From the IMG/VR virus record IMGVR_UViG_3300045988_135886: a stretch of 64,000 bases of DNA. The stretch is one strand, 5' to 3'. A model generated the notes under the pieces. It was not told the origin of the DNA. It worked only from the letters and a program-made list of their open reading frames with translations, and did not search any database. Position numbers and translations under genes: made by a program. This stretch comes from a virus. This document shows, one piece after another, positions 1 through 20,794 of the stretch. Within the stretch, counting starts at the first letter, position 1, and each line of letters starts with the position of its first letter.

Positions 1-2
1 CA

Positions 3-2465: not shown

Positions 2466-2494
2466 CCATTCCCATCTTATAAGGAGGATATCAC

Positions 2495-2737
2495 ATGTAT
2501 TATAAAGTAATCAAAAATGATGAAGTCGTAGATGTCCTTAATCATATCCTGTATATCAAATATCAGGAGAAACATAGTCTGTTGCTTCTATGTGATATCA
2601 CAGAAGCACAGGCTATTTTAAGTTCAGACGGAAAATATGGATGGCACATTGAAGGTCTCTATAATTTTCCGCCTGATAATGACATCTATGCAATAAAAGA
2701 AATTTCAAAATATGAATATGACAAATTGAAGAGGTGA
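2495..2737 (+). CDS. Hypothetical protein (80 aa)
   Basis: ORF with an AAGGAGG SD about 8 nt upstream of the ATG. No recognisable motif. Confidence 0.5.
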   Translation: MYYKVIKNDEVVDVLNHILYIKYQEKHSLLLLCDITEAQAILSSDGKYGWHIEGLYNFPPDNDIYAIKEISKYEYDKLKR

Positions 2738-2744
2738 TCACAGC

Positions 2745-3608: not shown

Positions 3609-3610
3609 TT

Positions 3611-4681: not shown

Positions 4682-4684
4682 AGT

Positions 4685-4701
4685 AAGGGGTTACTCCCCT
4701 T
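4685..4701 (+). terminator. Weak hairpin after the coiled-coil fibre gene
   Basis: AAGGGG-ttact-CCCCTT stem-loop 4 nt after the stop codon. The downstream T tract is poor (gctttaatt). Confidence 0.3.
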
Positions 4702-4732
4702 GCTTTAATTAAAGCGAAGGGATGTGCAGATA

Positions 4733-4990
4733 ATGAAAGAACAATTTCTTAATTTACAAGGTCTTACTGAGCTTGTTGATTATATTAAAAAATATATAGC
4801 TGATCAGCAAGAAGTCATCCCTTATGCATCTTATACATTGTTTCCAACAATTGGTAAAACAAACGCAATTTATGTGGACACAACCACAAATGCAATCTAT
4901 AGATGGGATGATAATAATATCAAATATTATGCATTGGCATTTGATCCTGAAAAGGAATTCATCATGCAATGCGGTAGCTCGAAAGGATGA
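4733..4990 (+). CDS. Hypothetical small protein
   Basis: The track ORF starts at GTG 4724. The ATG at 4733 has a GAAGGGA SD about 10 nt upstream. Confidence 0.4.
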   Translation: MKEQFLNLQGLTELVDYIKKYIADQQEVIPYASYTLFPTIGKTNAIYVDTTTNAIYRWDDNNIKYYALAFDPEKEFIMQCGSSKG

Positions 4991-4995
4991 TGTAA

Positions 4996-6765
4996 ATGGC
5001 TACACAGACATTGAATACTCGTATTGCCCTTAAATCGGATACAACCGCTAATTGGGCGAAATCTACGCTTGTTCTTTTAAAGGGTGAACAAGCGATTGAA
5101 ATTACAGAATCTGGTGCTTACAAAATTAAAATTGGTGATGGAGTTAAAACATTTGCTGAATTGCCATATGCAACTATGACACCAGAAGAAATCTCTGCAC
5201 TGATTGGTGATGGTTCAGTACAGAACGTAACTCTTGCTTCCGGTACTAACAACGGTACATTAAAACTGACTGTAGATGGAACAACTACAGATAATATTGC
5301 GGTAAAAGGATTAGGAAGTGCTGCATATACAAATACTTCTGCTTATGCAACTGCCGCACAGGGTGCTCTTGCTACAAACGCAGTCCGTAAAGTAGTTTCT
5401 GGCACTGCGAACGGTACAATCTCTGTAACAACAGGAACTGGAGCAGCAACAGATATAGCAGTAAAAGGATTGGGATCTGCTGCATATAAAGGAGCTGGAG
5501 CTTCACAGGGACAAGTTCCTGTAAATGGAGCCGCTCTTGGAACGACAGCCAATGTTCCTGTAGTAACAAATACTTCCGGACAGTTAGTTCCGCATGCCTC
5601 TGGTGCTCTTGGTTCTGCCGCATTTAAAGGTGCCGAGACATTTGCAACAGCTGCACAAGGTGCTAAAGCAGATAAATCAGTTCAGTCTGTATCTATTACT
5701 TCTGGAACTAATAACGGCACAATTAAATTAACTGTTAACGGCAATGCTACTGACAATATTGCTGTTAAAGGGCTAGGTTCTGCTGCTTACACAGCTTCAG
5801 GTGCCTATGCTACATCCGCTCAGGGTGCAAAAGCAGACGCGGCTATGCCAAAAGCCGGTGGTACATTCACAGGTACAGTAACGCTTGCAGCCGATCCAAC
5901 TGATGCTTTACAGCCAACAACAAAACAGTATGTAGATGCCAAAATTTCAAGTTCTATTGCTGCTTCTGATGCAATGGTGTTTAAAGGAACACTTGGAACT
6001 AATGGTACTGCTACTGCTCTTCCTACATCTTCTGTTGTAATAGGCGATACATATAAAGTAATTACTCAGGTTTCTGTAGTTGCTGATAATTCTTATACAG
6101 GAGCTGCTGTGACAGCTAAGGTCGGTGACTTAGTAGTCGCTATGTCAAAGGATCCAAAATGGATTGTTGTACCATCTGGTGATGAAATCGTTACTACTGT
6201 TAAGTATTCCACTACAACACAGAATCTTACAACAAGTGCTAAATCTGGAGAAATTACAGTAGGTGAAGCTGCTACAAAACAGGTAGATTCTTCTATCGCA
6301 GCCGCTTCTACTTCTACTAAGCTTCCAACTTCAAAAGCTGTTGCCGCTTTTGTTGAAGGAAAAGGTTACAAAACAACTGACCAGAAAGTAAAGAATACTC
6401 TTAATACTACTGCAAAGGCTTATGTAACTGGTACTACAAGTGCAACAACTGGTATTGGAGAACAGGTATTTGATACAGGTGTATATCTTGATACAACTGC
6501 TGGGAAACTTGTTGCTACTACTTTTGCAGGTGCTCTTCAGGGTAACGCAACGACTGCTACTTCTGCGGCTGCTTGTACAGGTAATGCTGCTTCTGCAACA
6601 AAACTTGCAGCATCAAGAAATTTCTCTCTTACTGGAGGTGCCGTTGCTGATGCTGTAGCATTTAACGGTGGAGGAAATGTTGCTCTTAGTGTTAAAAGTT
6701 TAAATACTGATTATTTAACTAATGGAGCCAATACTCTTATTTTAAATTGTGGGACATCTGTTTAA
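4996..6765 (+). CDS. Tail fibre protein with internal repeats
   Basis: The N-terminal motif 'LNTRIALKSDTTANWAKSTLVLLKGEQAIE..GDGVKTFAELPYA' is shared with the next gene. There are three copies of '..SGT.NGT(L/I)..T..G..TD(N)IAVKGLGSAAY..'. Composition is Ala/Thr/Gly-rich. Confidence 0.65.
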   Translation: MATQTLNTRIALKSDTTANWAKSTLVLLKGEQAIEITESGAYKIKIGDGVKTFAELPYATMTPEEISALIGDGSVQNVTLASGTNNGTLKLTVDGTTTDNIAVKGLGSAAYTNTSAYATAAQGALATNAVRKVVSGTANGTISVTTGTGAATDIAVKGLGSAAYKGAGASQGQVPVNGAALGTTANVPVVTNTSGQLVPHASGALGSAAFKGAETFATAAQGAKADKSVQSVSITSGTNNGTIKLTVNGNATDNIAVKGLGSAAYTASGAYATSAQGAKADAAMPKAGGTFTGTVTLAADPTDALQPTTKQYVDAKISSSIAASDAMVFKGTLGTNGTATALPTSSVVIGDTYKVITQVSVVADNSYTGAAVTAKVGDLVVAMSKDPKWIVVPSGDEIVTTVKYSTTTQNLTTSAKSGEITVGEAATKQVDSSIAAASTSTKLPTSKAVAAFVEGKGYKTTDQKVKNTLNTTAKAYVTGTTSATTGIGEQVFDTGVYLDTTAGKLVATTFAGALQGNATTATSAAACTGNAASATKLAASRNFSLTGGAVADAVAFNGGGNVALSVKSLNTDYLTNGANTLILNCGTSV

Positions 6766-6858
6766 ATGAAAGTGGCCTCTTTTATGGGGCTGCTTTACTA
6801 AATATGAAAATTATAGATTATATCTATTTAAATAAAAATTAAAAAAGGGAGGTGCACA

Positions 6859-8274
6859 ATGGGAGAACAAAATCTCAATATACGAATCAAACATAAATAT
6901 GATACGGAAGCTAATTGGAATAAAAATAATCCTGTTCTTTTAAGTGGAGAAATAGCAATTACAAGTGATAAATTCGGTAAACATAAAGTGGGAGATGGAA
7001 CACATAAATGGTCTGAACTATCTTATGCAAAAGCTGAACTTACAAAAGGCGATGTAACAGGCGCTCTTGGCTATACGCCTCCTTCAAGTGACACTTGGCG
7101 AGGTATTCAGGATAATCTAATAAGCAGCTCTACAACTGAGTCTCTATCTGCTGCACAGGGTAAAATATTAAAAGAGTTAGTTGACGGGAAAGCTCCGTCT
7201 TCACATACGCATACTAAAAGCGAAGTCGGATTAGGCAACGTTGACAATACTGCTGATGCCACAAAAAGTGTTAAATATGCTATTTCTGCAGGTAGCGCAT
7301 CATCTGCCGCTGCTCTTACTTCTAATGCTGGATCATCAACTCAGCCAGTATATTTCTCAGGTGGTAAACCAGTAGCTTGTTCATATACACTTGGTAAGTC
7401 AGTGCCTGCAGATGCATTATTTACCGATCATACTTATGGAAACATGAAGGGTGCTACTTCTTCTTCTGCCGGAAGTGCTGGTCTTGTTCCTGCACCTAAT
7501 ATAGGAGAACAATTAAAGTTTCTTCGTGCAGATGGTGCATGGGTAATCCCTACAAATACGACATATTCTGTAGGTACATCAAGTTACTTAGGAATAACTA
7601 AGCTTTATACTGAAACTGGGTCGGCTACAGATGGTACCATGACTCAAAATGCTATTACTTCTGCTCTTAACGGGAAATCTCCTACCTCTCATACGCACAA
7701 TTATGCAGGAAGTTCTTCTGCTGGCGGTGCTGCTACATCAGCAATTAAATTATCCACACCTAGAAAAATTGGTAACGCATCTTTTGATGGTACTGCTGAT
7801 ATTACCTTATCTCAGATGGGACTTAATGTTCCTGTTGAAATTACAAAAGCTAACTATCTTGCAAAAAAGAAAGCTGGAACTTTAAATGCAAATACCTATT
7901 ACAATGTTATTGATGAATATGATTCTGCAAATGTTATTAACGACTCATCTGTAACAGCCAACAGTGCGTTTTCAAGTACTAAATCAGAAAAAACATATGC
8001 GAAGAAAAGTACACTTGTTAATACTACTCTCACAGCAAGTAAATGGACTGGATCTTCTGCTCCATATAGTTATGTATTATCCGTATCTGGAGTAACTTCT
8101 TCAAATATTGTAGAAATAGATTATGCTTCTAATGCTTCATCTGCTGCTATTGAAGCTTATCAAAATGCAATGTTAGCTGACGGAGGACAGACTACAAATC
8201 AAATTACTATAAAAGCAACCGAGAAACCAACTGTAGATATTCCCATTACTATTGTTATAAGAAATGATTTATAA
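6859..8274 (+). CDS. Tail fibre protein (paralogous N-terminus)
   Basis: 'LNIRIKHKYDTEANWNKNNPVLLSGEIAI..GDGTHKWSELSYA' parallels the N-terminus of the 4996 gene. Fibre-type motifs include 'SHTHTKSEVGLGNVDNTADATK', 'SHTHNYAG' and 'KLSTPRKIGNASFDGTADIT'. Confidence 0.65.
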   Translation: MGEQNLNIRIKHKYDTEANWNKNNPVLLSGEIAITSDKFGKHKVGDGTHKWSELSYAKAELTKGDVTGALGYTPPSSDTWRGIQDNLISSSTTESLSAAQGKILKELVDGKAPSSHTHTKSEVGLGNVDNTADATKSVKYAISAGSASSAAALTSNAGSSTQPVYFSGGKPVACSYTLGKSVPADALFTDHTYGNMKGATSSSAGSAGLVPAPNIGEQLKFLRADGAWVIPTNTTYSVGTSSYLGITKLYTETGSATDGTMTQNAITSALNGKSPTSHTHNYAGSSSAGGAATSAIKLSTPRKIGNASFDGTADITLSQMGLNVPVEITKANYLAKKKAGTLNANTYYNVIDEYDSANVINDSSVTANSAFSSTKSEKTYAKKSTLVNTTLTASKWTGSSAPYSYVLSVSGVTSSNIVEIDYASNASSAAIEAYQNAMLADGGQTTNQITIKATEKPTVDIPITIVIRNDL

Positions 8275-8288
8275 AAGGAGGCGATAAC

Positions 8289-8831
8289 ATGGCAATTTAT
8301 AAAGGTGAACAATGTCTTGCCGGAGTTGGTAAGAATGCAACTATTAAAATTGGTACTGCTAAAACAGGTACTTCGGCTGCGGTAACTAATTCTGGTACTG
8401 ATACAGATGCTATATTGAATTTTACATTACCTAAAGGTGATCAGGGAGTTGGAATTTCAAGTGTTATCCCTCATTATCTTGCAAGTCCTAAATCGCAGGG
8501 AGTGACCAGATCAACTACTGGATGGGCGACTTCCGCTCAAGTTATGACATCTACAAATAAATATTTGTGGTGTTATCATGAATTTGTTTTGACAAACAAT
8601 AATCATTTGTATACAGATGCAACCGTTATAGGTGTTTATGGAGATAAAGGTGATCCGGGTACAACTGATTACAATGGATTGAAGAATAAACCGGTCGTTA
8701 ATGGAGCTGTAACTGCTTATCAGTCAGATATTATGAAATCTCAGTTGAGAAATGTGACATTCTCTACTGAAGAACCTAAGACAACTGATGGTAAACCTGG
8801 TGATATGTGGGTGGTGTATGGCGATGAGTAA
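8289..8831 (+). CDS. Small fibre-associated protein
   Basis: AAGGAGG SD. Ends in 'EEPKTTDGKPGDMWVVYGDE', a motif repeated at the C-terminus of the 10606 gene. Its stop overlaps the start region of the next gene. Confidence 0.45.
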   Translation: MAIYKGEQCLAGVGKNATIKIGTAKTGTSAAVTNSGTDTDAILNFTLPKGDQGVGISSVIPHYLASPKSQGVTRSTTGWATSAQVMTSTNKYLWCYHEFVLTNNNHLYTDATVIGVYGDKGDPGTTDYNGLKNKPVVNGAVTAYQSDIMKSQLRNVTFSTEEPKTTDGKPGDMWVVYGDE

Positions 8832-10590
8832 TATTAAAACTGGAGATATATTGAACTTTGATTATACTGGTGCTGTTCAGAGCGTAACATTGAAACCTGG
8901 AAAATATGTGCTTGAGTGTTGGGGTGCTCAAGGTGGAAATGGATGTACGGGAAATTCATATAAAGGCGGTGCCGGAGGATATTCCAAAGGTACTCTCACA
9001 CTAGCCAAAACAGAAACTTTATACATATATGTTGGTGGACAAGGAGTTAGCGCTGCAGCTTCTGGCAATGGAAATATTCGAGAAGGTGGATTCAACGGTG
9101 GTGGATCTGGACGTGATTGGGGTAGTACTGGTAATGGCGGTGGCGGAGGTGGTGGCGCCTCTGATATTCGAATTATAACTGATAACTTCTATGCTCGTGT
9201 TATAGTCGCCGGCGCTGGTGGTGGAGCTTCTGATAATGGAGCAGGCGGTGCTGGCGGCGGCACTTCTGGGATTTCATCATCCTCTTCCGCTGGAACAGCA
9301 ACTGGAGGCAGCGGTTTTGGTCAAGCGGCGGCATCAAGTTACACTTCAGGTGAATGTGGTGGCGGTGGCGGTGGCTGGTATGGAGGTTATGGCGGATCCT
9401 CAGAAAATTATTCTGGCGGTGGTGGATCAGGTTATGTCTACACTTCTTCTTCTGCTTCTAACTACCCTTCTGGATGCCTACTAAATTCTACTTATTATCT
9501 TTCTAATGCTCAAACCATTGCAGGAAATCAAACTTTTAAATCGCCTACTAATACAAATGAAACCGGTCACTCTGGTAACGGCTATTGTCGAATTACTGTT
9601 ATTGAATGCAGTAATACAGCACTATATGTCAGAATAAACAATTCTATGAAAAAAGCTACTGCTTTCTATTTCAAATTAAATAACAACAAAATGTACGGTG
9701 TTGGTTCTGCTAATTATAATGGTTCTGTTATGAATTTTGATTATACTGGTTCGGTTCAAACTGCTACATTGACTCCTGGTACATATACAATAGAATGCTG
9801 GGGTGGCCAAGGAGGAAGTTATAATAGTTACATAGGCGGATATGGTGGTTACTCCAAAGGCACAATTACTCTTACTAAAGCAACTACTGTTTATATATCT
9901 GTTGGTGGAGCTGGATCTTCCTCTTCTACTGCTGCAGGATTCAATGGTGGAGGAACTGGTATTTCTTCTGGTAGAGGTGGTGGAGGAGCTACAGATGTTC
10001 GTATAGGTCAAAATTCTCTATATTCAAGAGTTATCGTAGCCGGAGGTGGCGGCGGAGCTGGTGTAACAAGTGCCAATGCTAATCCTTGTGGTTGTGGTGG
10101 TGGAGAATATGGTGGAGATGGCTATTATAATAACACTACCGGTTCTTATACTACTGGTCAAAATAGATCTGGCGGTAGTGCCTCACAAACTGCAGGTGGT
10201 ATAACTTGGAGTACAGGCACCCAGGCTACTTTTGGTCAAGGCGGAAATGCTTCCGGCTACTCTTGTGGTGGCGGCGGAGGCGGCTGGTATGGAGGCGGCG
10301 GAGCCTATGACAATGATTCTGACTCTGATGGACGTTGGGGTGGAGGAGGATCAGGATATGTTTATACCTCTTCTACAGCTAAAAATTACCCTAACGGATG
10401 CCTACTAAATTCTACTTATTATCTTTCTAATGCTCAAACCATCGCAGGAAACACTTCTTTTACTTCTCCTACAGGATCAGCAGAAACTGGTCACACAGGC
10501 AGTGGATTCTGCAGAATTACAAATTTGAACCCAACACAATATGGATTATACGTAAAAACGAACTCTGGTTGGAAACACATAGATTTATAA
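8824..10590 (+). CDS. Glycine-rich protein with two tandem ALK/LTK-type glycine-rich domains
   Basis: Two copies of 'FDYTG.VQ..TL.PG.Y..ECWG.QGG ... YVGG.G ... GFNGGG ... GGGA(S/T)D(I/V)RI ... ARVIVAGGGGG ... GGGGGWYGG ... GGGSGYVYT ... YYLSNAQTIAGN..F.SP....ETGH.G.G.CRIT'. The start was chosen at ATG 8824 (7 nt after GGGTGGTG). ATG 8818 is also possible. Confidence 0.7.
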   Translation: MSNIKTGDILNFDYTGAVQSVTLKPGKYVLECWGAQGGNGCTGNSYKGGAGGYSKGTLTLAKTETLYIYVGGQGVSAAASGNGNIREGGFNGGGSGRDWGSTGNGGGGGGGASDIRIITDNFYARVIVAGAGGGASDNGAGGAGGGTSGISSSSSAGTATGGSGFGQAAASSYTSGECGGGGGGWYGGYGGSSENYSGGGGSGYVYTSSSASNYPSGCLLNSTYYLSNAQTIAGNQTFKSPTNTNETGHSGNGYCRITVIECSNTALYVRINNSMKKATAFYFKLNNNKMYGVGSANYNGSVMNFDYTGSVQTATLTPGTYTIECWGGQGGSYNSYIGGYGGYSKGTITLTKATTVYISVGGAGSSSSTAAGFNGGGTGISSGRGGGGATDVRIGQNSLYSRVIVAGGGGGAGVTSANANPCGCGGGEYGGDGYYNNTTGSYTTGQNRSGGSASQTAGGITWSTGTQATFGQGGNASGYSCGGGGGGWYGGGGAYDNDSDSDGRWGGGGSGYVYTSSTAKNYPNGCLLNSTYYLSNAQTIAGNTSFTSPTGSAETGHTGSGFCRITNLNPTQYGLYVKTNSGWKHIDL

Positions 10591-10605
10591 AAGGAGGGCT
10601 TAACT

Positions 10606-10881
10606 ATGCCGATTATATTTCACGGAACAGGTAGTGGCGGCTCTGCTAAAAAACTAAAAACCGCACGAACTATTAATGGTACGAATTTTGATGGTACAGC
10701 TAATATTACTACTGCTAATTGGGGAACAACAAGAACCGTTACTGTAGGAAATACAAGTAAATCTGTAAATGGATCTGGAAACGTAAGTTGGTCGTTAGCT
10801 GAAATAGGTATTCATCTTTCAACAACGGAACCTGCAGCTAGTGACGGAAAGAATGGAGATATTTGGATTACTTATGAATAA
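10606..10881 (+). CDS. Small fibre-associated protein (paralogous role to the 8289 gene)
   Basis: AAGGAGG SD. Contains 'KLKTARTINGTNFDGTANIT' (compare the 6859 gene). The C-terminal 'EPAASDGKNGDIWITYE' matches the C-terminus of the 8289 gene. Confidence 0.45.
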   Translation: MPIIFHGTGSGGSAKKLKTARTINGTNFDGTANITTANWGTTRTVTVGNTSKSVNGSGNVSWSLAEIGIHLSTTEPAASDGKNGDIWITYE

Positions 10882-10905
10882 AAGACTGAAAGGAAGGTGA
10901 GGCTT

Positions 10906-13347
10906 ATGGCTTGTTCTGGTGGATGTGGAACTTCTTGTTCTACTGACTGCACTCATTCATCATCTGGTGGATGTGGTGGTTCTTGTGGTGGTTCTTGCTC
11001 TACTAACTGTACTGGTGGATGTTCTGGATATTGTGATGGAACTTGTAAGGGAGGTTCAGGAAGTACTTGTTCTGACTGTACTGCCAAATGTGCTAATGAC
11101 TGTACCGGAGCTTGTACAAATGCTTGTGTAACCGGATGCACTGGCTGTGGGAACAACTGTGATGGAGACTGTACAAGCGCCTGTGCTCAAAGGTGCTCTA
11201 ATGATTGCAATGCTGCATGTACTGCTACTTGTGCTTATGATTGCGAACATACTTGCACTGCTTCTTGTGCCAACGACTGCACCAGTTGTGGTGGATCTTG
11301 CTCAAGTAATTGCTCAGGAAATTGTGATTCCGGTTGTTATACTGGTTGTTCCGGTTGTGATTCTACCTGTTCTGGATCCTGCACTGGTACTTGTAATACT
11401 ACTTGCACTACCACTTGTGCCAATGACTGCACTGGCGGGTGCAAAGGAACCTGTACAGGTGGATGTGGTGGTTCTTGTGATAATTCATGCGGCTTTTCTT
11501 GTGAAGCTTCATGTGATAACAATTGTACTGCTGTTTGTTCTGTATCTTCTGTGTATGGTGGAAACTCAGAGAAGAGTGTATTGAATTTTGCTTATACAGG
11601 TAAAGCTCAATCTGTAACCCTTGAGCCTGGAAAATATGTTCTTGAATGCTGGGGAGCACAGGGAGGTTATCGTTCTAATTCTAGTTATGGTGGAAAAGGT
11701 GGCTATTCTACAGGGACTTTAACATTGACTCAAAAAACTACTATATACATATATGTCGGTGGATCTGGAAATTCTGTTACATCAGCATCAAATTCAATCT
11801 ATCCCGGAGGTTTCAATGGTGGTGGATATAGATACAATTATAAAGGTGGTGGTGGCGCTACTGATATTCGTATTGGAAGTGCTTCTTTATATGCCCGTGT
11901 TATCGTTGCAGGTGGCGGTGGTTCTGATGGTAGTCCTAATTATAGTGGTGGGTATGCAGGTGGTGTATCTGGTACTAGGGGAAATTTTGGATGTGGTTCA
12001 TATGGATATGGTGGATCTCAAACTGCTTCATATTCATCTTTAAGTGCTATTAATTCACAAGGCACCACAAATTCTTCTTCTAACTGTGCTGCTGGTTTTG
12101 GTTTCGGTGGTTTTGGATGTTATTACGCTTCAGGTTACGGTGGAGCTGGCGGCGGAGGATGGTACGGTGGACAAGGTACTTATCCTGATGGTTCTGGAGA
12201 TGATGATGGCGGTGGCGGAGGTGGATCTGGTTACGTTTATACTTCCTCTTCTGCTTCTAACTATCCTCAAGGCTGTCTCCTAAATTCATCTTACTATCTT
12301 TCTGATGCTTCTAATTTATCTGGCAATGAATCTTTCAAATCTCCTTCTGGTGCTACAGAAACTGGTCATTCTGATAATGGCTATTGTAGGATTACCTGTT
12401 ATATCAAAAAGAAAACTCTACATTGTAAAATGAACAATGAAATTAAAAAAGCAGCTCCAGTATTTATGAAAATGAACAATAAAATTTATGATGCTGGCGC
12501 TAATGCTGTAATGGATTTTGCTTATACAGGAACAGCTCAAGCTATATCACTTCCAAGAGGAAAATATATTATAGAATGCTGGGGCGCTCAAGGCGGTTCA
12601 TATAGTAGTTATTATGGTGGTGCTGGAGGATATTCTGTCGGAACCATAACTCTAACTAAAAATTCTACGGATTTATATATTTATGTTGGTGGACAACCAG
12701 AAGCTACAACTTCAACAGGTGAAACACCTGGTGGATTTAACGGAGGAGGAAAAGGTTGTTCAAGAACTTATAATTATAGTAGTTATGGACAAGGTGGCGG
12801 CGGTGCAACCGATGTTCGTATAGGAAAAAATGATCTTTATGCTAGAGTTATTGTCGCTGGTGGCGGCGGAGGTTCATCATCAGAAAATTCGCTTACAACA
12901 AAATATGGCGGTGGAACTACTGGTGGTTCTTCTGCTTCTGGATATGGAGCTACACAAACTGCTGCAGGTACAAATGGTTCGTTTGGTCAAGGTGGTTCTG
13001 CAACAACTTCTGGAACTAATTATAATTATGGTTCCGGCGGTGGTGGAGGTGGATGGTATGGTGGTGGTGCATGTTCTGATTATAGTGACAGCACTAACTA
13101 CCAAGGCTATAATGGCGGAGGTTCAGGATATGTTTACACTTCAGCTACTGCTGCTAATTATCCAAGTGGTAATTATGTAAATTCTTCTTACTACCTTACC
13201 GATGCGCAAACTATAGCAGGAAATCAATCATTTAAATCACCTAATGGAACAAATGAAACAGGCCATACCGGAAATGGTTTCTGTCGTATCACACGTAAAT
13301 CAGGAAAAATATTTGTAAAACAAAACGGTTCATGGATCAAAGTATAA
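10906..13347 (+). CDS. Virion-module protein: N-terminal CXXX (Cys-every-4th-residue) array fused to two ALK-type glycine-rich domains
   Basis: The ATG at 10906 lies 8 nt after AGGAAGG (the track uses GTG 10897). The first ~210 aa contain 52 Cys, mostly spaced CX3. They are followed by two glycine-rich domain copies with the same motifs as the 8824 gene. Confidence 0.75.
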   Translation: MACSGGCGTSCSTDCTHSSSGGCGGSCGGSCSTNCTGGCSGYCDGTCKGGSGSTCSDCTAKCANDCTGACTNACVTGCTGCGNNCDGDCTSACAQRCSNDCNAACTATCAYDCEHTCTASCANDCTSCGGSCSSNCSGNCDSGCYTGCSGCDSTCSGSCTGTCNTTCTTTCANDCTGGCKGTCTGGCGGSCDNSCGFSCEASCDNNCTAVCSVSSVYGGNSEKSVLNFAYTGKAQSVTLEPGKYVLECWGAQGGYRSNSSYGGKGGYSTGTLTLTQKTTIYIYVGGSGNSVTSASNSIYPGGFNGGGYRYNYKGGGGATDIRIGSASLYARVIVAGGGGSDGSPNYSGGYAGGVSGTRGNFGCGSYGYGGSQTASYSSLSAINSQGTTNSSSNCAAGFGFGGFGCYYASGYGGAGGGGWYGGQGTYPDGSGDDDGGGGGGSGYVYTSSSASNYPQGCLLNSSYYLSDASNLSGNESFKSPSGATETGHSDNGYCRITCYIKKKTLHCKMNNEIKKAAPVFMKMNNKIYDAGANAVMDFAYTGTAQAISLPRGKYIIECWGAQGGSYSSYYGGAGGYSVGTITLTKNSTDLYIYVGGQPEATTSTGETPGGFNGGGKGCSRTYNYSSYGQGGGGATDVRIGKNDLYARVIVAGGGGGSSSENSLTTKYGGGTTGGSSASGYGATQTAAGTNGSFGQGGSATTSGTNYNYGSGGGGGGWYGGGACSDYSDSTNYQGYNGGGSGYVYTSATAANYPSGNYVNSSYYLTDAQTIAGNQSFKSPNGTNETGHTGNGFCRITRKSGKIFVKQNGSWIKV
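10912..11538 (+). repeat. Coding-level CXXX repeat array (TGT/TGC about every 12 nt)
   Basis: 52 Cys codons give 51 spacers: 45 of three residues, 4 of two (SD, TG, TS, SG) and 2 of seven (THSSSGG, KGGSGST). Spacers are almost entirely G/S/T/D/N/A. Confidence 0.9.
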
Positions 13348-13385
13348 CACTTTGGTCCATATTTAAATTACAAGGAGGAATTGTT

Positions 13386-13784
13386 ATGAAACTTATTTTG
13401 AAAGACGGACAAGAATTAGTTATTACTCGTGCTAACGATACATATTCATATGAAGGATATAAAGATGGGTTGGGAAATGATATGAACAAAAATATTGTAG
13501 CTACTATTTCTATCTTCAATTCTGATAAATCTTTAAACACTATTAAGGATATGATTACTGATGACAATAGAACAGGTTTTAAAATTATTTATGGGAATAC
13601 CCAGAAAGATTATACTGGAATGAAAATTGAAAGTATTTCAGAAGAAATCTCCAATGAAAGAAGTGTTATTAATATCTCATTAGCTACAGATAAAACCATA
13701 GCTCCTACTGAGACCACTGGAACAACAACAGAAAAAACTAAAGAAGAAACTAAAGAAAAAACGGAAACAGCTTCTGATAAATAA
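13386..13784 (+). CDS. Hypothetical protein with Thr/Glu/Lys-rich tail
   Basis: The ATG at 13386 is preceded by AAGGAGG (the track start at 13332 is an alternative codon without an SD). No recognisable motif. Confidence 0.45.
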   Translation: MKLILKDGQELVITRANDTYSYEGYKDGLGNDMNKNIVATISIFNSDKSLNTIKDMITDDNRTGFKIIYGNTQKDYTGMKIESISEEISNERSVINISLATDKTIAPTETTGTTTEKTKEETKEKTETASDK

Positions 13785-13809
13785 TTAAGAATGAAAGGAA
13801 TATAAGGAT

Positions 13810-14148
13810 ATGAGAAAAATAATCGTAAAGATTGATAAAGAAAAAGCTACAGAGCTTGAAAGAGTTAATTTTGAATTAAACTTCGTAAAAGACATTGTAC
13901 AGAGAGTTATTGAATCACATCCAAGCGATTTAGAACTCATCAATGGAGATACTCTTATGTCTTACAATAAACGTGGTGCAGAATTACAGAGAAAGTATGC
14001 TGCTCTTGCAAATGAGATGGAAAAGGAATACATCCCAGAATACCTCGAAGGTCATCAGTATAGTTGGATTATTCCAAATAATTCTGATGAAATGACTATT
14101 ACTATTAAATGTAATTGTGAGATTCCAGAATTAGAGGAAATAGCATGA
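13810..14148 (+). CDS. Small acidic protein translationally coupled to the radical SAM gene (candidate maturase accessory protein)
   Basis: GAAAGGA SD. ATGA stop/start overlap with the radical SAM gene at 14145-14148. No catalytic motif. Ends '..TIKCNCEIPELEEIA'. Confidence 0.4.
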   Translation: MRKIIVKIDKEKATELERVNFELNFVKDIVQRVIESHPSDLELINGDTLMSYNKRGAELQRKYAALANEMEKEYIPEYLEGHQYSWIIPNNSDEMTITIKCNCEIPELEEIA

Positions 14149-16544
14149 AAAGGACAGAACAATATTCGGATCAGATAGCTAGACTTTATCCATCTAAGAA
14201 GGTAAAAACCGATGACGGACAAAGAATATTAACACAGAGTATCACTTTTCAAGTAACTGATGATTGTAACCTTGCATGTAGTTATTGCCTTAGTGGAGAT
14301 ACAAAAATCCGTATGGCAGATTATTCGTTAAAATCAATCAAAGATATTCAGTTGGGAGATAAAGTGTTAGGATTTGAGGAATATCCTCAAAAAGGGAAAC
14401 AGACTAAGGTAATTGTTTCAGACGTAGAGAAATTATATTGTCATGAAGCATCAACTATCGAGTTAACATTTAATGACGGACAAATTCTTAATATTACTCC
14501 TAATCATAAAATTTTAGTTCGAAGAAATTCTTATGATAATAGATATGACTATGTTGAAGCTGGTAAACTAAATATAGGCAGTGAAGTGTATTACCTCCCT
14601 ATTATTGATTCAAAATTACATATAGAAGAGCCGATACATGACATAAATTATAAAATAGGATACCTTATTGCAATGATTAAAGGTGACGGTTCATTAAAAC
14701 ATTATAATCGAAAGTCTGATGGTTGTGATGTATTCAAGTTTAGAATAGCTGTAAAAGATACGGAAATAATCGAACGTTGTAAGAAGTATCTTGATGATTT
14801 AGATATTCCGGTTTATTTGAAACCGTATAATGTATCTAAAAAATACGATATATGGAACAATGCTATTTTTGCAAATACAAGATACGTATATAATAAATTA
14901 AATCAATTAATTAGCGATAATTTCTCTCAAAATACTTCTCTTTCATATTATCAAGGATATCTTGCAGGATTTTACGATGCTGAAGGTCATATTTCAAAAG
15001 AACGTGTTATCAGAATTTGCAATACAGATATTAAGATGATTAATGAGGCTACCTTAGGATTGGATTTGTTAAAGATTCCATACATAATCGAAGTTGATGC
15101 AAAAGGAACTGTGAATAAACCATTAAAATACAATATTCGAATAACTGATAACTTAAATTCTATATCTACATATCGTTTTATCAAATCTGTTCATCCAGCA
15201 ATAAAAAGAAAATCTTTTGATAATTTCCTTAATTATTCTCCATTAAAAAAGACTAAAATTATAGATATAAAAAAAAATCCTATTAGTACTACGGTATATA
15301 ACATAGGAACTTCATCTCGTACTTATATCGCAAACACTATTGCTGTACATAATTGTTACCAAGGACATAAAGGAAAAAATCGAATGTCGTTTGAAACAGC
15401 TAAGAAATTCTTTGATTTAGTTGTATCAGGTGAAAAAGGTTTTAAATCTTATATCAATCCAGAGAAATCTCCTGGATTGGTTGTAGATTTCATTGGAGGA
15501 GAACCTTTTCTTGAGATAGAGCTTATAGATCAAATCTGTACTTATATTATGGATAAACTCATAGAGTTGGATCATCCTTGGGCCATGAAAACTATGTTCT
15601 CTATTTGTTCAAATGGTGTTTTATACAGGGACGAAAAAGTACAAGCATTTCTTCGTAAGTGGGCCAATAGATTATCTTTCTCAGTTACTATTGATGGGAA
15701 TAAAGAATTACATGATTCCTGTCGAGTATTCCCAGATGGCAGTCCAAGTTATGACATAGCTGTCGATGCTGCGTCTGATTGGATGAAACGTGGAAATCAT
15801 ATGGGAAGCAAGATCACAATTGCTCCAGGTAATATCAGCTTTCTATACGATGCTATTAAGCATATGGTCGATCTTGGATATGATGAAATCAATGCCAATT
15901 GTGTATATGAAAAGGGTTGGACACCTGTACATGCAACTGTTCTTTACGATCAAATGAAACGCATATCTGATTATTTCTTGGAACAGAATTTTGATTTTGA
16001 ACGTGATTTCTTCTGTTCCCTTTATAATGAAGATTTCTTTCATCCTAAAGATCCTGATGATTTACAAAGCTGGTGCGGAGGCGTTGGTAATTCAATGATT
16101 GCTTGCGATCCTCAAGGTCGCATATTTCCATGTATCAGATATATGGAATCTTCTCTTAATGGAGAGCAAGAACCGTACTCTATTGGTGATGTAGATAATG
16201 GTATAGGATGCACAGAATGTTATAAATGCAGAATTAATTGTATGGCAAAAATAGATAGAAGGACACAGAGTACAGATGAATGTTTCTATTGTCCTATAGC
16301 TGCAGGATGTTCTAATTGTTCTGGTTATGATTATCAAGTGAATGGTACTCCTGACTCAAAAGCTACTTATATATGTGTTATGCATAAAGCTCGTGCTCTT
16401 GGAAACCTGTATTTCTGGAATAAATATTATAGAAAAAATAATATGAATAAACGAATGAAAAACTATGTGCCAGATGAATGGGCGCTTGAGATTATTTCTG
16501 AATCAGAACTTAATATGTTGAAAGAACTTGAAAGAGAGGATTAA
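14145..16544 (+). CDS. Radical SAM / SPASM-domain enzyme (anSME/peptide-maturase-like) interrupted by an intein
   Basis: After removing the intein the cluster motif reads 'CNLACSY|CYQGH' (CX3CX2C). Also present: 'DFIGGEPFL', 'SICSNG' and a C-terminal Cys-rich SPASM-like region ('CGGVGNSMIACDPQGRIFPCIRY', 'CFYCPIAAGCSNCSG'). Confidence 0.8.
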   Translation: MKRTEQYSDQIARLYPSKKVKTDDGQRILTQSITFQVTDDCNLACSYCLSGDTKIRMADYSLKSIKDIQLGDKVLGFEEYPQKGKQTKVIVSDVEKLYCHEASTIELTFNDGQILNITPNHKILVRRNSYDNRYDYVEAGKLNIGSEVYYLPIIDSKLHIEEPIHDINYKIGYLIAMIKGDGSLKHYNRKSDGCDVFKFRIAVKDTEIIERCKKYLDDLDIPVYLKPYNVSKKYDIWNNAIFANTRYVYNKLNQLISDNFSQNTSLSYYQGYLAGFYDAEGHISKERVIRICNTDIKMINEATLGLDLLKIPYIIEVDAKGTVNKPLKYNIRITDNLNSISTYRFIKSVHPAIKRKSFDNFLNYSPLKKTKIIDIKKNPISTTVYNIGTSSRTYIANTIAVHNCYQGHKGKNRMSFETAKKFFDLVVSGEKGFKSYINPEKSPGLVVDFIGGEPFLEIELIDQICTYIMDKLIELDHPWAMKTMFSICSNGVLYRDEKVQAFLRKWANRLSFSVTIDGNKELHDSCRVFPDGSPSYDIAVDAASDWMKRGNHMGSKITIAPGNISFLYDAIKHMVDLGYDEINANCVYEKGWTPVHATVLYDQMKRISDYFLEQNFDFERDFFCSLYNEDFFHPKDPDDLQSWCGGVGNSMIACDPQGRIFPCIRYMESSLNGEQEPYSIGDVDNGIGCTECYKCRINCMAKIDRRTQSTDECFYCPIAAGCSNCSGYDYQVNGTPDSKATYICVMHKARALGNLYFWNKYYRKNNMNKRMKNYVPDEWALEIISESELNMLKELERED
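14286..15353 (+). mobile_element. Intein (356 aa) with LAGLIDADG homing-endonuclease domain
   Basis: Begins 'CLSGDTKIRMADYS' (block A) and ends 'AVHN' followed by a +1 Cys. Two LAGLIDADG motifs are present ('IGYLIAMIKGDGSL', 'YLAGFYDAEGHI'). It is in frame with no stop codons. Confidence 0.85.
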
Positions 16545-16561
16545 AAGCCTCTCTTTTTTAT
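16533..16561 (+). terminator. Candidate intrinsic terminator after the radical SAM gene
   Basis: AGAGAGG-attaaaag-CCTCTCT followed by TTTTTTATT. It overlaps the stop codon. Confidence 0.45.
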
Positions 16562-16584
16562 TGACTAAAAGGAGGCTTGATATT

Positions 16585-18255
16585 ATGGCAGAAATTAAAG
16601 GAATTGATGTTTCCAGATGGAATGGAAACATCGACTGGAAAACTGTTGCTAGTTATGGAATGGGCTTCGCTATCCTAAGAATTACAGAAAAAGGAAATAT
16701 TGTTGATAGCACATTCGAACCTAATTATAAAGGCTGTATTGAGAATAAAATTCCTGTTGGAGTCTATAAATACAGCTATGCTACTACTATTGCTCAAATT
16801 AAAAATGAAGCAAATGTAGTTATTAAAACATTGAATAAAAGAAAACTGGATTATCCAGTGTTTCTTGATATAGAGGATAAATGTCAGGAGAATTTATCTG
16901 ACAATTTAATGATGAAAATGATCGAAGCGTTTAGAGCTATTATTGTCAAAGCTGGATATAAATTTGGTATTTACTGTGGTTATTCTTGGTATCAGTATCA
17001 ACTACCAGAAGGTGCTAAAAAGTATGATTGTTGGGTTGCCCGATATCCTAATAATGATACCGGTGAATTACAGGAAAGATTAAGAGTTCCTGCTTCTACT
17101 GGTGTTATTGGATGGCAATATTCTAGTAAGGCAACCATTCCTGGAATTCCAACAAAAACTGATCGAAGTGTATTCTATAAAGACTATTCTAAATCTTCTA
17201 CTACTTCTACAGACTCTCCCAAACCAACAACTACACAAGGAAGTGATACTATGAATAAAGATAAAGCTATTGATGCTCTTATTGCTTGCGCTGAAAATGA
17301 GGTTGGATATTTAGAGAAGAAATCTAATTCTCAGCTTGATGATAAAACTGCAAATGCAGGTTACAATAACTACACTAAATACTGGAGAGACGTATATCCT
17401 CAGTATCAGGCACAGGCTTGGTGTGCAGCGTTTGTGAGTTGGTGCATGATGAAAACATTCGGTCTTGATGTAGCTAAAAAACTCCTTAAACATTGGCCTT
17501 ATGTATACTGTCCTACTCTTGGAAATCTCTTTACAAAGTATGCAAATCCACAGCGAGGAGACATTGTGATCTTCTATCGTAACGGTACTTTTGCACATAC
17601 AGGAATTGTCACAAAAGTTGAAGGTGATAAGTTTTATACTATTGAAGGGAATACTTCAGCTGGCTCTACTGTTGTTCCAAATGGTGGAGGAGTTTTTGCT
17701 AAATCTTATTACAATTCTAATCTTCCAGGCACTAAATTCTGTCGTCCAGACTATTCTATTGTCACATCTATTTTAACATCTACTGCACCTGTACAGCCAT
17801 CTTATACTGCATGGGTAGGTTCTTGTACAGCTAATGGAACAGATGTATTCTCAGGCGCTACAGGAGCTTCTAAGTTAAGTACATATCCTAAACTTAATGC
17901 AGGTAATCTTGTGGATATCATCGGTGAATCTGGTACAAGATATCAGGTTCGTATCGCTGCAAAATATATAGGGTATGTAGAAAAATCTAACATTAAAAAT
18001 CCTAATACTCCTGCTGCAACAACTACAAAAAAATATCCATTTGTAGGAAAAGTAACTGCAAGTAAATTGAATGTTCGCAAAAAACCCGGTACTGAACATC
18101 CGGTACTTCCAGAGTATCCGATGTTAAATAAAGACAATCTTATTAATGTCCTCGGAGTTACAAAAGATACTAAAGGTGACAGATGGTACAAAGTATCAAT
18201 CACTAAAAAAGAATATGTTGGCTATGTATCAGCCAAATATATTACTAAGGCATAA
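16585..18255 (+). CDS. Multidomain endolysin: GH25 muramidase + CHAP/NlpC-P60-like amidase/peptidase + two SH3-like wall-binding domains
   Basis: The ATG at 16585 follows AAAGGAGG. The sequence shows 'IKGIDVSRWNGNIDW..FLDIED' (GH25-like), 'AWCAAFVSWC...FAHTGIV' (Cys/His of a CHAP/NlpC fold) and two C-terminal SH3-like repeats ('..RYQVRIAAKYIGYVEKSNI', '..RWYKVSITKKEYVGYVSAKYI'). Confidence 0.75.
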   Translation: MAEIKGIDVSRWNGNIDWKTVASYGMGFAILRITEKGNIVDSTFEPNYKGCIENKIPVGVYKYSYATTIAQIKNEANVVIKTLNKRKLDYPVFLDIEDKCQENLSDNLMMKMIEAFRAIIVKAGYKFGIYCGYSWYQYQLPEGAKKYDCWVARYPNNDTGELQERLRVPASTGVIGWQYSSKATIPGIPTKTDRSVFYKDYSKSSTTSTDSPKPTTTQGSDTMNKDKAIDALIACAENEVGYLEKKSNSQLDDKTANAGYNNYTKYWRDVYPQYQAQAWCAAFVSWCMMKTFGLDVAKKLLKHWPYVYCPTLGNLFTKYANPQRGDIVIFYRNGTFAHTGIVTKVEGDKFYTIEGNTSAGSTVVPNGGGVFAKSYYNSNLPGTKFCRPDYSIVTSILTSTAPVQPSYTAWVGSCTANGTDVFSGATGASKLSTYPKLNAGNLVDIIGESGTRYQVRIAAKYIGYVEKSNIKNPNTPAATTTKKYPFVGKVTASKLNVRKKPGTEHPVLPEYPMLNKDNLINVLGVTKDTKGDRWYKVSITKKEYVGYVSAKYITKA

Positions 18256-19499: not shown

Positions 19500-19600
19500 T
19501 TACTTAACACATAATTCATATTATCATAATTTTGGAAAAAAGTAAAGTTTTTTATTTTGTAAGTAAAATTAGTGTAATTTTGTACAACGGAGGGATGTAT

Positions 19601-20794
19601 ATGGCAAGAAGGGAAAAAGGTTCAGGATCATGGGATACTGTAACAAAGAATGACATTACATACTATAGGTACCGTAAGAAATATAATGGTATGACAAGCC
19701 GGAAAGAATTTGTAGGAAGGACAAAAGCTGATGTAAAACGCAAGATACAAGAATTTGAAGCTAAGAGTATGAGGGTTAACCAAAAAGATTATCGTAAGAT
19801 GACTCTTGGGGAATGTATAGATAATATCCTGCAGACGTTGGAGCCGACTTTCAAGACAAATAACTATGCTACTCTTCAGTCTACAAATCGCTGCTATATT
19901 AAAACTAATCCGATTGCTGATGTTCAGATGGCTGCTATAGACAAGATTGTCATTCAAACATACTATACAAATATGTCGAAGAAATATTCTGAGAGCACTG
20001 TTAAAAAGACACGCACTCTTTTCAATATTGTTTTCGACTATCTTGTATCCTGTAACATTATCACAGAGAATCCTGCAAAAGGGATTAAGATGCCGCATAA
20101 GTCAAAATATGCAGTACAGAAGAAAGAACACTCTTTCTTATCTTTAGAAGAAGCTGAGAAGTTTTATAAGACGGCTCTTATGAAAGCAAATTCTGCTTTG
20201 CCAGGCGTAAAGACAGGTGATTACATCTATGGACGTAATGCTAGGTTCTGTCTGTTAGTTCTTTATACTGGTATGCGTATAGGAGAAGCTTATGCTCTCA
20301 CATGGAAAGATATAGATTTTAAGAATAATACCATTAACATAGATAAGACAATGGAGCGTATCAAAGTAGATAGCAAATATCAGTGGCTCATAGATACACC
20401 AAAACGTCCTAAGTCAATCAGAGTTATTCCTCTGGCAAATCGTGCAAAGGAACAGCTGCTCTGGCTTAAAACTGTGTCTCCTGGACTGGAAGCATCCGGA
20501 GATGACCATATATTCGTAACTAAGAACAATATTCCACCATCACAGTCAACTCTTACCAGGACGCTTAAAGCGATCCTCAAGAGAGCCGGCATCGAATCTA
20601 ATGGTTTCGGCCTACATGATCTTAGGCATTCGTTCGGATCTATGCTGCTGCAGAAAGGATGGGAACAGAACCAGCCTGTAGATATTAAGGTAATATCAGA
20701 GATACTTGGACATGAAGATGTTTCCACAACTTATAACATATATATGCATATCATGAATAAACATAAATCAGAAGTCATAAATTTACTTGATTAA
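19601..20794 (+). CDS. int: Tyrosine recombinase / phage integrase
   Basis: The ATG at 19601 lies 6 nt after GGAGGG (the track start at 19532 is TTG without an SD). Catalytic-region motifs are 'YTGMRIGEAYALTWKDID', 'HDLRHSFGS' and 'LGHEDVSTTYNIYMH'. Confidence 0.85.
   Translation: MARREKGSGSWDTVTKNDITYYRYRKKYNGMTSRKEFVGRTKADVKRKIQEFEAKSMRVNQKDYRKMTLGECIDNILQTLEPTFKTNNYATLQSTNRCYIKTNPIADVQMAAIDKIVIQTYYTNMSKKYSESTVKKTRTLFNIVFDYLVSCNIITENPAKGIKMPHKSKYAVQKKEHSFLSLEEAEKFYKTALMKANSALPGVKTGDYIYGRNARFCLLVLYTGMRIGEAYALTWKDIDFKNNTINIDKTMERIKVDSKYQWLIDTPKRPKSIRVIPLANRAKEQLLWLKTVSPGLEASGDDHIFVTKNNIPPSQSTLTRTLKAILKRAGIESNGFGLHDLRHSFGSMLLQKGWEQNQPVDIKVISEILGHEDVSTTYNIYMHIMNKHKSEVINLLD

Follow-up and report, generated by a model that had tools for sequence, protein, structure and literature searches.

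Radical S-adenosylmethionine (SAM) enzymes of the SPASM type have been studied as makers of small secreted peptides, so what is one of them doing in the tail-fibre module of phages that are very common in the human gut, with a protein of 150-830 residues as its evident target? The question is raised by a viral stretch of 64,000 nucleotides, IMG/VR record IMGVR_UViG_3300045988_135886, which we will call the window. Between positions 10906 and 16544 of its plus strand, a large protein that starts with a long run of regularly spaced cysteines (the lattice) is followed by two small open reading frames (ORFs) and by the radical SAM gene. We will refer to these four genes as the cassette. The reading towards which we lean, with moderate confidence, is that this cassette is a phage-borne variant of the CXXX-repeat maturation system, installed in the tail-fibre module and stapling the lattice of a fibre protein. 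The parts of the cassette are the following:

10906..13347, plus strand: 813-residue presumptive substrate, with a CXXX lattice and two glycine-rich domains (ORF, ribosome-binding site, PF12810)
10912..11538, plus strand: CXXX lattice, residues 3-211 (count of 52 Cys, conservation)
11581..12399, plus strand: first TNF-like plus glycine-rich domain, ALK_LTK_GRD (Pfam residues 236-498; start estimated, motif LNFAYTG)
12511..13344, plus strand: second glycine-rich domain, approximate boundaries (second Pfam stretch; start estimated, motif MDFAYTG)
13332..13360, plus strand: 12-bp hairpin across the stop codon of the 813-residue protein gene (RNAfold, -14.9 kcal/mol)
13386..13784, plus strand: 132-residue accessory protein starting MKLILKDG (ORF; homologues in other cassettes)
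13810..14148, plus strand: 112-residue partner, ATGA-coupled to the radical SAM gene (ORF; profile comparison, structure model)
14145..16544, plus strand: 799-residue radical SAM/SPASM precursor (exteins 14145-14285 and 15354-16544, 443 residues together)
14286..15353, plus strand: 356-residue class-1 intein with a LAGLIDADG homing endonuclease (motifs, Pfam/NCBIfam matches, intein-free alleles)
16530..16557, plus strand: terminator-like hairpin over the radical SAM stop codon (10 bp, -13.3 kcal/mol)

This layout agrees with an earlier note made from the nucleotide sequence, which had described an ~814-residue protein with a Cys at every fourth position over its first ~210 residues (we count 813 residues), two small ORFs on the same strand, the second coupled to a radical SAM gene with CX3CX2C and C-terminal SPASM-like Cys, and then a terminator-like hairpin and an endolysin gene (from 16585).

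The radical SAM enzyme, its partner and the cysteine lattice

Once the intein is removed, the 443-residue extein matches TIGR04115 over the whole length of the model (523.7 bits, E 3e-157, model positions 1-359 of 359; cut-off 350). The enzyme is a bona fide member of this family of CXXX-repeat-target radical SAM/SPASM proteins, and the JGI/NCBI label for the exact precursor is indeed 'radical SAM peptide maturase (CXXX-repeat target family)'. The other models compared by hidden Markov model (HMM) search do not reach their cut-offs, be it the PapB family (NF047865, 169.9 bits for a cut-off of 340), the SCIFF maturase (TIGR03974, 100.7 for 425), the QhpD-type enzymes (TIGR03906, 97.4 for 453) or the anaerobic sulfatase maturase (TIGR03942, 44.6 for 349). 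This bears out the CXXX-maturase identity that had been proposed in the earlier note, and the sulfatase-maturing enzymes, which the same note had named as the awkward outcome, obtain the lowest of these scores.

The three Cys of the CX3CX2C motif are extein residues 41, 45 and 48. Towards the C-terminus, seven Cys arranged as CX13GX4C, CX2CX5CX2C and a final Cys fit a SPASM domain and are invariant in an alignment of eight family sequences, and the Pfam SPASM model gives no match to the enzyme at E <= 0.01. The closest solved structure is the SCIFF maturase CteB (PDB 5WGG; E 1.3e-19), with an alignment that begins only at CteB residue 91. The recognition element of peptides that are ribosomally synthesized and then modified post-translationally (RiPPs), or RRE, which occupies the N-terminal part of CteB, therefore has no counterpart in the phage enzyme.

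The stop codon of the 112-residue ORF overlaps the ATG of the radical SAM gene (14145) as ATGA, and no NCBIfam, Pfam or PHROG match was found for this ORF. It had been suggested earlier that it could be either the TIGR04116 'CXXX repeat peptide modification system protein' or a PqqD-like RRE, and neither proposal stands in that form. With respect to TIGR04116, the cut-off of the model is missed, and what is left is a probable remote relationship: a 51-sequence profile of the partner aligns by hhalign with a genuine TIGR04116 member (probability 70.6%, E 3.9e-5, 81 co-linear columns), a signal that comes from the broader profiles only, the narrow partner alignment (A2) giving no hhalign match. 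TIGR04116 is also the sole family that recurs among the relatives of the partner, weakly (5 of 51), and the partner of locus L265, a phage contig considered below, scores 26 bits against it. On these profile comparisons, we read the 112-residue ORF as a divergent, sub-threshold relative of TIGR04116. With respect to the RRE, an AlphaFold2 (AF2) model built with 17 homologues (pLDDT, the predicted local distance difference test score, of 91) consists of a strand, a long helical hairpin and a beta-hairpin, and Foldseek finds only coiled-coil matches to it in the PDB (best E 0.82); fold and matches together rule out a PqqD-like RRE. The protein has an invariant C-x-C near its C-terminus, and a profile search of 1.84 billion representative proteins gathered 224 clusters of its relatives.

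The presumptive substrate is translated from an ATG that lies six bases 3' of the ribosome-binding site (RBS) GGAAGGTGAGG, and it carries neither a signal peptide nor a conserved N-terminal domain. Its residues 3-211 contain 52 Cys, which amounts to 25% of 211 residues. The Cys-to-Cys units measure four residues in 45 cases, three in four cases and eight in two cases, so that 45 of the 51 are exactly C-x3-C; position +4 after each lattice Cys is a Cys, the spacers are nearly all T, S, G, A, N or D, and Asp occupies the third spacer position in 7 units. At the DNA level this is no tandem repeat, as Tandem Repeats Finder reports just four short 12-nucleotide patches and one 21-nucleotide patch. 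In relatives whose maturase is ~81% identical, all aligned Cys are kept (47 of 47 and 51 of 51) while only 33-38% of the spacer residues are. This difference, together with the lack of a DNA tandem repeat, means that the periodicity of the lattice is selected at the protein level. The lattice also gives a weak match to phrog_6085, below threshold.

The length of the lattice varies among near-identical phages (loci L004 and L037 compared with positions 10906-11550 of the window). In an 824-residue version of the protein, an extra insertion of 11 residues brings in additional Cys units and a block of spacers is locally re-diversified, while the glycine-rich domains are identical to those of the 813-residue protein at 594 of 601 positions; the lattice thus changes more rapidly over evolution than the remainder of the protein does.

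Linkage of enzyme and array in related loci

Is the association between enzyme and lattice a property of this one phage? We assembled 184 loci, of which 182 came from three scans (the extein against viral contigs, the extein against GTDB genomes, and a diverse family alignment against viral contigs) and two are GenBank phage records (L103 and L104). The enzymes are 34-100% identical to that of the window, on contigs that range from a few kb to 260 kb. Arrays were counted within 4 kb of the enzyme gene, by local HMMs and a regular expression. A CXXX array is present in 177 of the 184 loci, and in each of the seven without one the stretch upstream of the enzyme gene is shorter than 2.8 kb, so that the co-occurrence anticipated in the earlier note holds wherever there is enough flank. 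In 175 of the 177 array-bearing loci, no array lies on the strand opposite to that of the enzyme gene. The position of the array varies: it is upstream of the enzyme in 154 loci, and in 23 it is found on the downstream side only. Linkage outlasts these changes of gene order, and it is retained down to enzyme identities of 34-46%, in prophages of Blautia, Anaerobacterium, Oscillospiraceae and others. According to local HMMs, a homologue of the 112-residue partner is found in 152 of the 184 loci, and homologues of the 132-residue protein in 76, where they may precede or follow the radical SAM gene.

The converse search looked for lattices without an enzyme, using the DNA pattern (TGY N9) x9 TGY, that is ten Cys codons with a 12-nucleotide spacing, in viral contigs. 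Among the matches listed, most were 12-nucleotide simple repeats, and true-looking lattices were limited to L230, L250 and L265. In L265, an independent 180-kb phage contig, the lattice belongs to a 461-residue protein with a weak F5/8-type-C-like N-terminal domain and 54 Cys, and its gene adjoins a TIGR04115-like enzyme (341 bits) and a partner protein. In L250, two lattice proteins come after fibre-like ORFs of 1900 and 1102 residues, beside a radical SAM gene of another family, which the locus boundary truncates. L250 (IMGVR_UViG_2595698524_000001, 2-2583, minus strand) belongs to an unrelated viral contig of 224 kb, and it may represent an independent, parallel pairing of a lattice with a radical SAM enzyme.

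We consider the pairing of enzyme and lattice to be well supported. Adjacency could in principle be incidental, with the lattice being a disulfide-rich or low-complexity linker and the enzyme acting elsewhere: as a general point, neighbouring phage genes need not interact, and the DNA-pattern search itself illustrates that a C-x3 periodicity can come from 12-nucleotide simple repeats. However, the window array is not such a repeat, the enzyme family is defined by its CXXX-repeat target, and linkage is complete across the locus set despite the range of enzyme identities, genomes of 30-260 kb and changing gene order. Moreover, the hosts are strict anaerobes, in which disulfides are unreliable. 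Coincidence is hence hardly credible to us.

The related loci also tell what a target usually looks like. The usual phage target is a protein of 150-490 residues, made of a conserved N-terminal domain of ~110 residues (N-domain; motif L..LK.KVK.EM.RR ... YDF ... EHGQKT) and then 13-75 Cys. This N-domain is present in 131 of the 184 loci. It is often followed by a second ORF, a pure array starting with MACS, and the N-terminus of the window protein, MACSGGCGTSC, resembles this second ORF. The fusion of a lattice to glycine-rich domains is found only in the lineage of the window, namely in its close relatives and in L034-L036, whose enzymes are 81-82% identical. The contrast that had been drawn at the outset between a giant phage substrate and a short secreted peptide was consequently overstated, given that the phage relatives are mostly of 150-490 residues and that a cellular target has 174; what is particular to this one lineage is the fusion to receptor-binding domains.

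That cellular target is encoded in L104 (GenBank MT837480, positions 2222-6270), which was deposited as 'Bacteriophage sp.' and contains a cellular-looking CXXX system; to our eye, it is the cellular version, of the Bacteroidetes type. The system as catalogued in NCBIfam/TIGRFAMs comprises targets (TIGR04114 and TIGR04117), a radical SAM enzyme (TIGR04115), TIGR04116 and TIGR04119. In L104, a 174-residue CXXX protein with a twin-arginine (Tat) signal is encoded together with a TIGR04115 enzyme (630 bits), a 321-residue TIGR04119 'CXXX repeat peptide maturase' (235 bits), a TIGR04116 protein (104.6 bits), and TatA and TatC, the last two identified by eye from the sequence and by no family model. 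Export through Tat implies that the cargo is folded or modified. The trio of families listed in the earlier note (target, maturase and modification protein) was incomplete, as TIGR04119 and Tat export are part of L104, the one cellular-type locus examined, and are both lacking in the phage. When the TIGR04119 member of L104 was used in tblastn, the best E-value was 0.08 in the window and nothing was found at E <= 1e-3 in the 184 other loci; nor was a TatC homologue found in the window or in the phage-type loci. This makes the phage cassette a reduced and rewired variant. The two forms share a full-score TIGR04115 enzyme, a target with Cys at every fourth residue and small polar spacers, and a partner of ~100 residues, with the same order of motifs, adjoining the enzyme gene. 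They differ in that the phage form does without TIGR04119, Tat signal and TatA/TatC, that its partner and its array stay under the curated cut-offs, that its target sits in the tail-fibre module and is fused to receptor-binding domains, and that it has the additional MKLILKDG protein and an intein in the enzyme. The CXXX family is thus already catalogued and the enzyme automatically annotated, and it is the fibre-linked phage form that is undescribed in the literature we found. No published biochemistry of the NCBIfam system was found, and none of the papers that our literature search returned deals with TIGR04115, with CXXX repeats or with a SPASM enzyme whose substrate is a phage structural protein; nor did it bring up a description of this system in connection with ranthipeptides or PF12810 in phages.

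The fibre setting and the proposed chemistry of the lattice

What kind of protein, then, carries the lattice of the window? The residues that follow it form two copies of PF12810, the ALK/LTK glycine-rich domain (325.2 bits in Pfam, for a cut-off of 24.5). In gp24, the tail fibre of the cyanophage Pam3, the receptor-binding tip is made of TNF-like plus glycine-rich domains whose structure resembles that of the ALK ectodomain (PMC9608196). By analogy, the 813-residue protein would be a tail-fibre receptor-binding protein, present in the virion and binding the host. The array protein thus carries the fold of tail-fibre receptor-binding tips, which is in line with the fibre- or adhesin-like substrate imagined in the earlier note. 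The likeness to Pam3 gp24, and to gp38 of phage S16, concerns the C-terminal two-thirds of the protein; the shaft or attachment part of those fibres is alpha-helical or beta-helical and unmodified, whereas here it would be replaced by a Cys lattice served by a radical SAM enzyme of its own. A paralogue encoded just upstream (8824-10590) is 51% identical over 402 residues to the glycine-rich part of the 813-residue protein, for which tblastn against phages and phmmer against the PDB found nothing, low-complexity filtering being the probable reason. The analogy may extend to the 132-residue protein, which has no Pfam, NCBIfam or PHROG match and is 37% identical (E 5e-20) to its homologue in L040. 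In Pam3, the small gene that comes after the glycine-rich fibre gene encodes a fibre chaperone (PMC9608196), and our guess is that the 132-residue protein could be one as well.

The surroundings of the cassette point in the same direction. ORFs upstream of it match tail-fibre and tail-protein PHROGs, so that 'tail-fibre module' is a better name than 'late-module', the location given in the earlier note. In L075, L096, L103 and L185, the cassette lies between or after baseplate or fibre genes and before the lysis genes. In L096, a prophage of Anaerobacterium chartisolvens DSM 27016, the order is tape measure, baseplate, fibre, CXXX protein, a 185-residue ORF, partner, radical SAM enzyme, holin and amidase; the same layout is seen in L185, there with precomputed Pfam labels. 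In L075, L103 and L265, more fibre-like genes come after the enzyme gene.

The same map can be read in another way. The cassette could be cargo (a moron) which specifies RiPP- or bacteriocin-like products or adhesins that are freed at lysis or during lysogeny, the ~110-residue N-domain being a long leader. In L096, L185 and the window it is immediately followed by the holin or endolysin, a common place for cargo, the succession of target, small protein and radical SAM/SPASM enzyme is that of a RiPP cluster, the annotation sources do speak of a peptide maturase, and the cellular-type version makes a Tat-exported product. Against this, the cassettes of L075, L103 and L265 are embedded between fibre-like genes rather than at a module border, and all the phage cassettes that we examined lack a leader protease, a transporter, an immunity gene and a signal peptide (nor was an exporter found). 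Intergenic gaps are short and no promoter or terminator proper to the cassette is evident, which suggests that it belongs to the fibre operon. The domains to which the lattice is fused are of the receptor-binding type and have a paralogue next door in the fibre module, and we know of no bacteriocin that resembles arrays of 40-80 Cys on proteins of 200-800 residues. We regard cargo as unlikely, while taking it seriously.

As for the reaction itself, the families that come closest to the enzyme offer several precedents. PapB, which matures PapA into the ranthipeptide freyrasin in Paenibacillus polymyxa, is the second-best family (169.9 bits, half of its cut-off of 340). It joins the sulfur of Cys to the C-beta of Asp or the C-gamma of Glu as thioethers, and it is tolerant, accepting spacings of 0-6 residues, unrelated sequences and many contexts (PMC9413430). 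Neither PapB nor the phage enzyme has a long N-terminal RRE extension, and both have targets with repeated motifs spaced by four residues; yet PapA, a short peptide of leader plus core, has six CX3D motifs, compared to 52 Cys in an 813-residue substrate. CteB and the other SPASM enzymes of sactipeptides and ranthipeptides share the radical SAM core and the 7-Cys SPASM domain with the phage enzyme, from which the ~90-residue N-terminal RRE of CteB is missing. QhpD is a radical SAM/SPASM enzyme that introduces Cys-to-Asp/Glu thioethers into QhpC, a protein subunit of quinohemoprotein amine dehydrogenase, and it is therefore a precedent for modifying a protein subunit instead of a secreted peptide. 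The score of the phage enzyme on the QhpD-type model is far under the cut-off, however, and QhpC has few cross-links, a redox-enzyme context and no repeat lattice. The idea of hardening a virion component by covalent cross-links has its own precedent in the 'chainmail' of the HK97 capsid, in which autocatalytic Lys-Asn isopeptide bonds connect the capsid subunits; in the present phage, the protein to be modified would be a fibre protein and the catalyst a separate radical enzyme.

Cross-linking is not the only use to which so many Cys could be put. The lattice might bind metal or Fe-S clusters, in the manner of a metallothionein, or be loaded with a cofactor, and the enzyme might perform another reaction, such as another type of cross-link, an epimerisation or the installation of a cluster or cofactor. 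One quarter of the lattice residues are Cys, the PapB CX3D rule is broken, the cellular target travels through Tat, a route of folded or cofactor-bearing proteins, in the company of a second SPASM-type protein (TIGR04119), and no biochemical characterisation of the family was found in the literature. We nevertheless find this quite improbable. The best named families after TIGR04115 form thioethers (PapB, SCIFF and QhpD-type) or are other peptide maturases, the closest solved structure is that of a SCIFF maturase, and the spacers, rich in Thr, Asp and Asn, supply the acceptors that ranthipeptide enzymes use. Furthermore, the CC and CxC motifs of metallothioneins are nearly absent and the spacing is held at four.

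Returning to the stapling of a fibre lattice, the process could be pictured as follows. Late in infection, the fibre operon would be transcribed through to the hairpin that follows the radical SAM gene. The radical SAM precursor would then splice, joining the exteins so that the residue after the intein, a Cys, becomes the third ligand of the CX3CX2C [4Fe-4S] site; before splicing, the enzyme would be inactive. Being devoid of an RRE, it would probably work with the translationally coupled, TIGR04116-like partner. Modification of the N-terminal Cys lattice of the 813-residue protein would take place in the anoxic cytoplasm, with a bond, by analogy with PapB, SCIFF/CteB and QhpD, from each Cys sulfur to a carbon atom in a Thr, Asp, Asn or Ser of the spacers close by. 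Some 210 low-complexity residues would in this way be turned into a ladder of small thioether macrocycles, a rigid stalk, insensitive to proteases and redox conditions, that bears the two receptor-binding glycine-rich domains. The modified protein would finally assemble as a fibre, with the lattice as its stalk and the glycine-rich domains as its tips. The thioether chemistry, the role of the partner, the incorporation into the virion and the mechanical purpose are all things that we infer, the first of them from the analogies above.

Several observations weigh against this reading. No characterised member of TIGR04115 was found in the literature, and the 112-residue partner gives no match to the TIGR04116 model (cut-off 50 bits) even at E <= 10. 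Lattice residues 1-215 score below the cut-offs of both CXXX targets (14.6 bits for a cut-off of 20 with TIGR04114, 19.9 bits for a cut-off of 50 with TIGR04117), although the cellular target of L104 is likewise sub-threshold, at 19 and 43 bits. The window protein is devoid of the N-domain that is common to 131 of the 184 loci; if this domain is a recognition element, recognition must differ in the window. Since the lattice residue at +4 is Cys and not Asp, the PapB CX3D rule does not apply as such. An AF2 model of P0307, a protein made of N-domain plus array, has a pLDDT of 44.6 and an unstructured array, so that no confident model of an array is available. The PHROG families of the glycine-rich proteins are all of 'unknown function', and the lysis genes that directly adjoin the cassette in many prophages mark a classic site for cargo genes.

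A broader and more tentative proposal, which we consider possible though rather doubtful, is that many phages of strictly anaerobic gut Clostridia build their fibres in part from a Cys lattice in which their own RiPP-type radical SAM enzyme installs a ladder of thioethers. Virion proteins would thereby have their first case of covalent cross-links put in by an enzyme, and anaerobes a substitute for disulfides, and the NCBIfam CXXX system of Clostridia would then largely be tail hardware and not the source of a secreted natural product. If the lattice is indeed cross-linked and carried in the virion, it would represent a new class of post-translational modification of virions, explain how phages of strict anaerobes can have covalently stabilised, protease-resistant fibres without disulfides, and provide an NCBIfam system that is uncharacterised with a biological function. 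For protein engineering, too, an enzyme able to put staples at dozens of positions in a repetitive protein that has no leader would be attractive. The system is testable, as there are cultured lysogens (Anaerobacterium chartisolvens DSM 27016 and Anaerolentibacter hominis CSJ-1) and natural intein-free alleles.

The intein, the surrounding map and recoded relatives

The radical SAM gene is interrupted by an intein whose sequence (CLSGD...TPNH...AVHN, then C) displays Cys1, the block B motif TPNH, the terminal His-Asn, a +1 Cys and two LAGLIDADG motifs, and which matches PF14528, PF14890 and TIGR01445. The insertion point coincides with the third Cys of CX3CX2C, and the +1 Cys is the cluster ligand. 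Its presence, already noticed in the sequence, is confirmed by the fact that exactly 1068 nucleotides are absent from ~27 IMG/VR contigs that are otherwise ~98% identical, which also sets the boundaries; four contigs are occupied. Immediately at the junction, a Ser codon (AGT) is replaced by a Leu codon (CTA) in the empty alleles. Other family members (among P0046-P0140) reach 549-774 residues and contain intein or Hint Pfam domains, which suggests that the enzyme has been invaded by inteins repeatedly.

The window as a whole is that of a phage, with tail, tail-fibre and lysis genes in a plus-strand block (69-18255), an integrase (19532-20794) directly after the lysis block, and replication genes on the minus strand, including those of a DNA polymerase and a ribonucleotide reductase. 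No match of the region to GenBank phages was obtained by megablast. Related contigs of this phage reach 130-177 kb, and their size, with the DNA polymerase and the ribonucleotide reductase, together with the integrase after the lysis block, indicates a large temperate phage. The 90%-identity cluster of the 813-residue protein counts 3204 members, the sole named one being called 'hypothetical protein', which means that the phage is very common in public metagenomes. Blautia genomes contain members of the cluster of the 132-residue protein, the contigs being as long as 2.36 Mb, and in the related loci the hosts that can be derived from genome matches are strict anaerobes (Blautia, Anaerosporobacter, Oscillospiraceae, Anaerobacterium and others). 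The carrier of the cassette is probably a temperate phage of gut Lachnospiraceae, with Blautia as its host. The genes that frame the cassette are the following:

8824..10590, plus strand: upstream paralogue with two glycine-rich domains and without a Cys lattice (PF12810, 319 bits)
10606..10881, plus strand: 91-residue ORF with tail-fibre repeat motifs (PHROG tail-fibre matches)
16585..18255, plus strand: endolysin (PHROG endolysin families, best E 1e-42)

Upstream of the cassette, the same arrangement occurs twice in succession, a small ORF with tail-fibre repeats and then a large glycine-rich protein (8289-8831 and 8824-10590; 10606-10881 and 10906-13347). These repeated pairs suggest two-part fibres, made of an adaptor and a distal protein, or a gene that was once fused. 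The 91-residue ORF shares its reading frame with the 813-residue ORF, with one TAA and the RBS between them; read-through that would fuse the two is unlikely, because a strong RBS and an ATG follow the TAA.

Two hairpins punctuate the cassette. The perfect 12-bp hairpin at 13332-13360 (-14.9 kcal/mol) precedes the accessory genes, and it is possible that it acts as an attenuator which sets the ratio of the fibre protein to the maturation proteins. The 10-bp hairpin that overlaps the radical SAM stop codon (-13.3 kcal/mol) has a T-rich tail; the consensus scan listed it on the minus strand only.

Finally, in certain related viral contigs the radical SAM gene is interrupted in frame, and every interruption that we checked is a TAG (L105, 1778-1780; L152 and L153, 7937-7939; L157, 2819-2821; L178, 3459-3461 and 3723-3725; L181, 7706-7708; L182, 7337-7339). 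The window itself contains no tRNA genes, suppressors included. The interruptions fit TAG-recoded gut phages, in which stop codons are reassigned in late genes, and such a recoding would place the maturase among the late genes.

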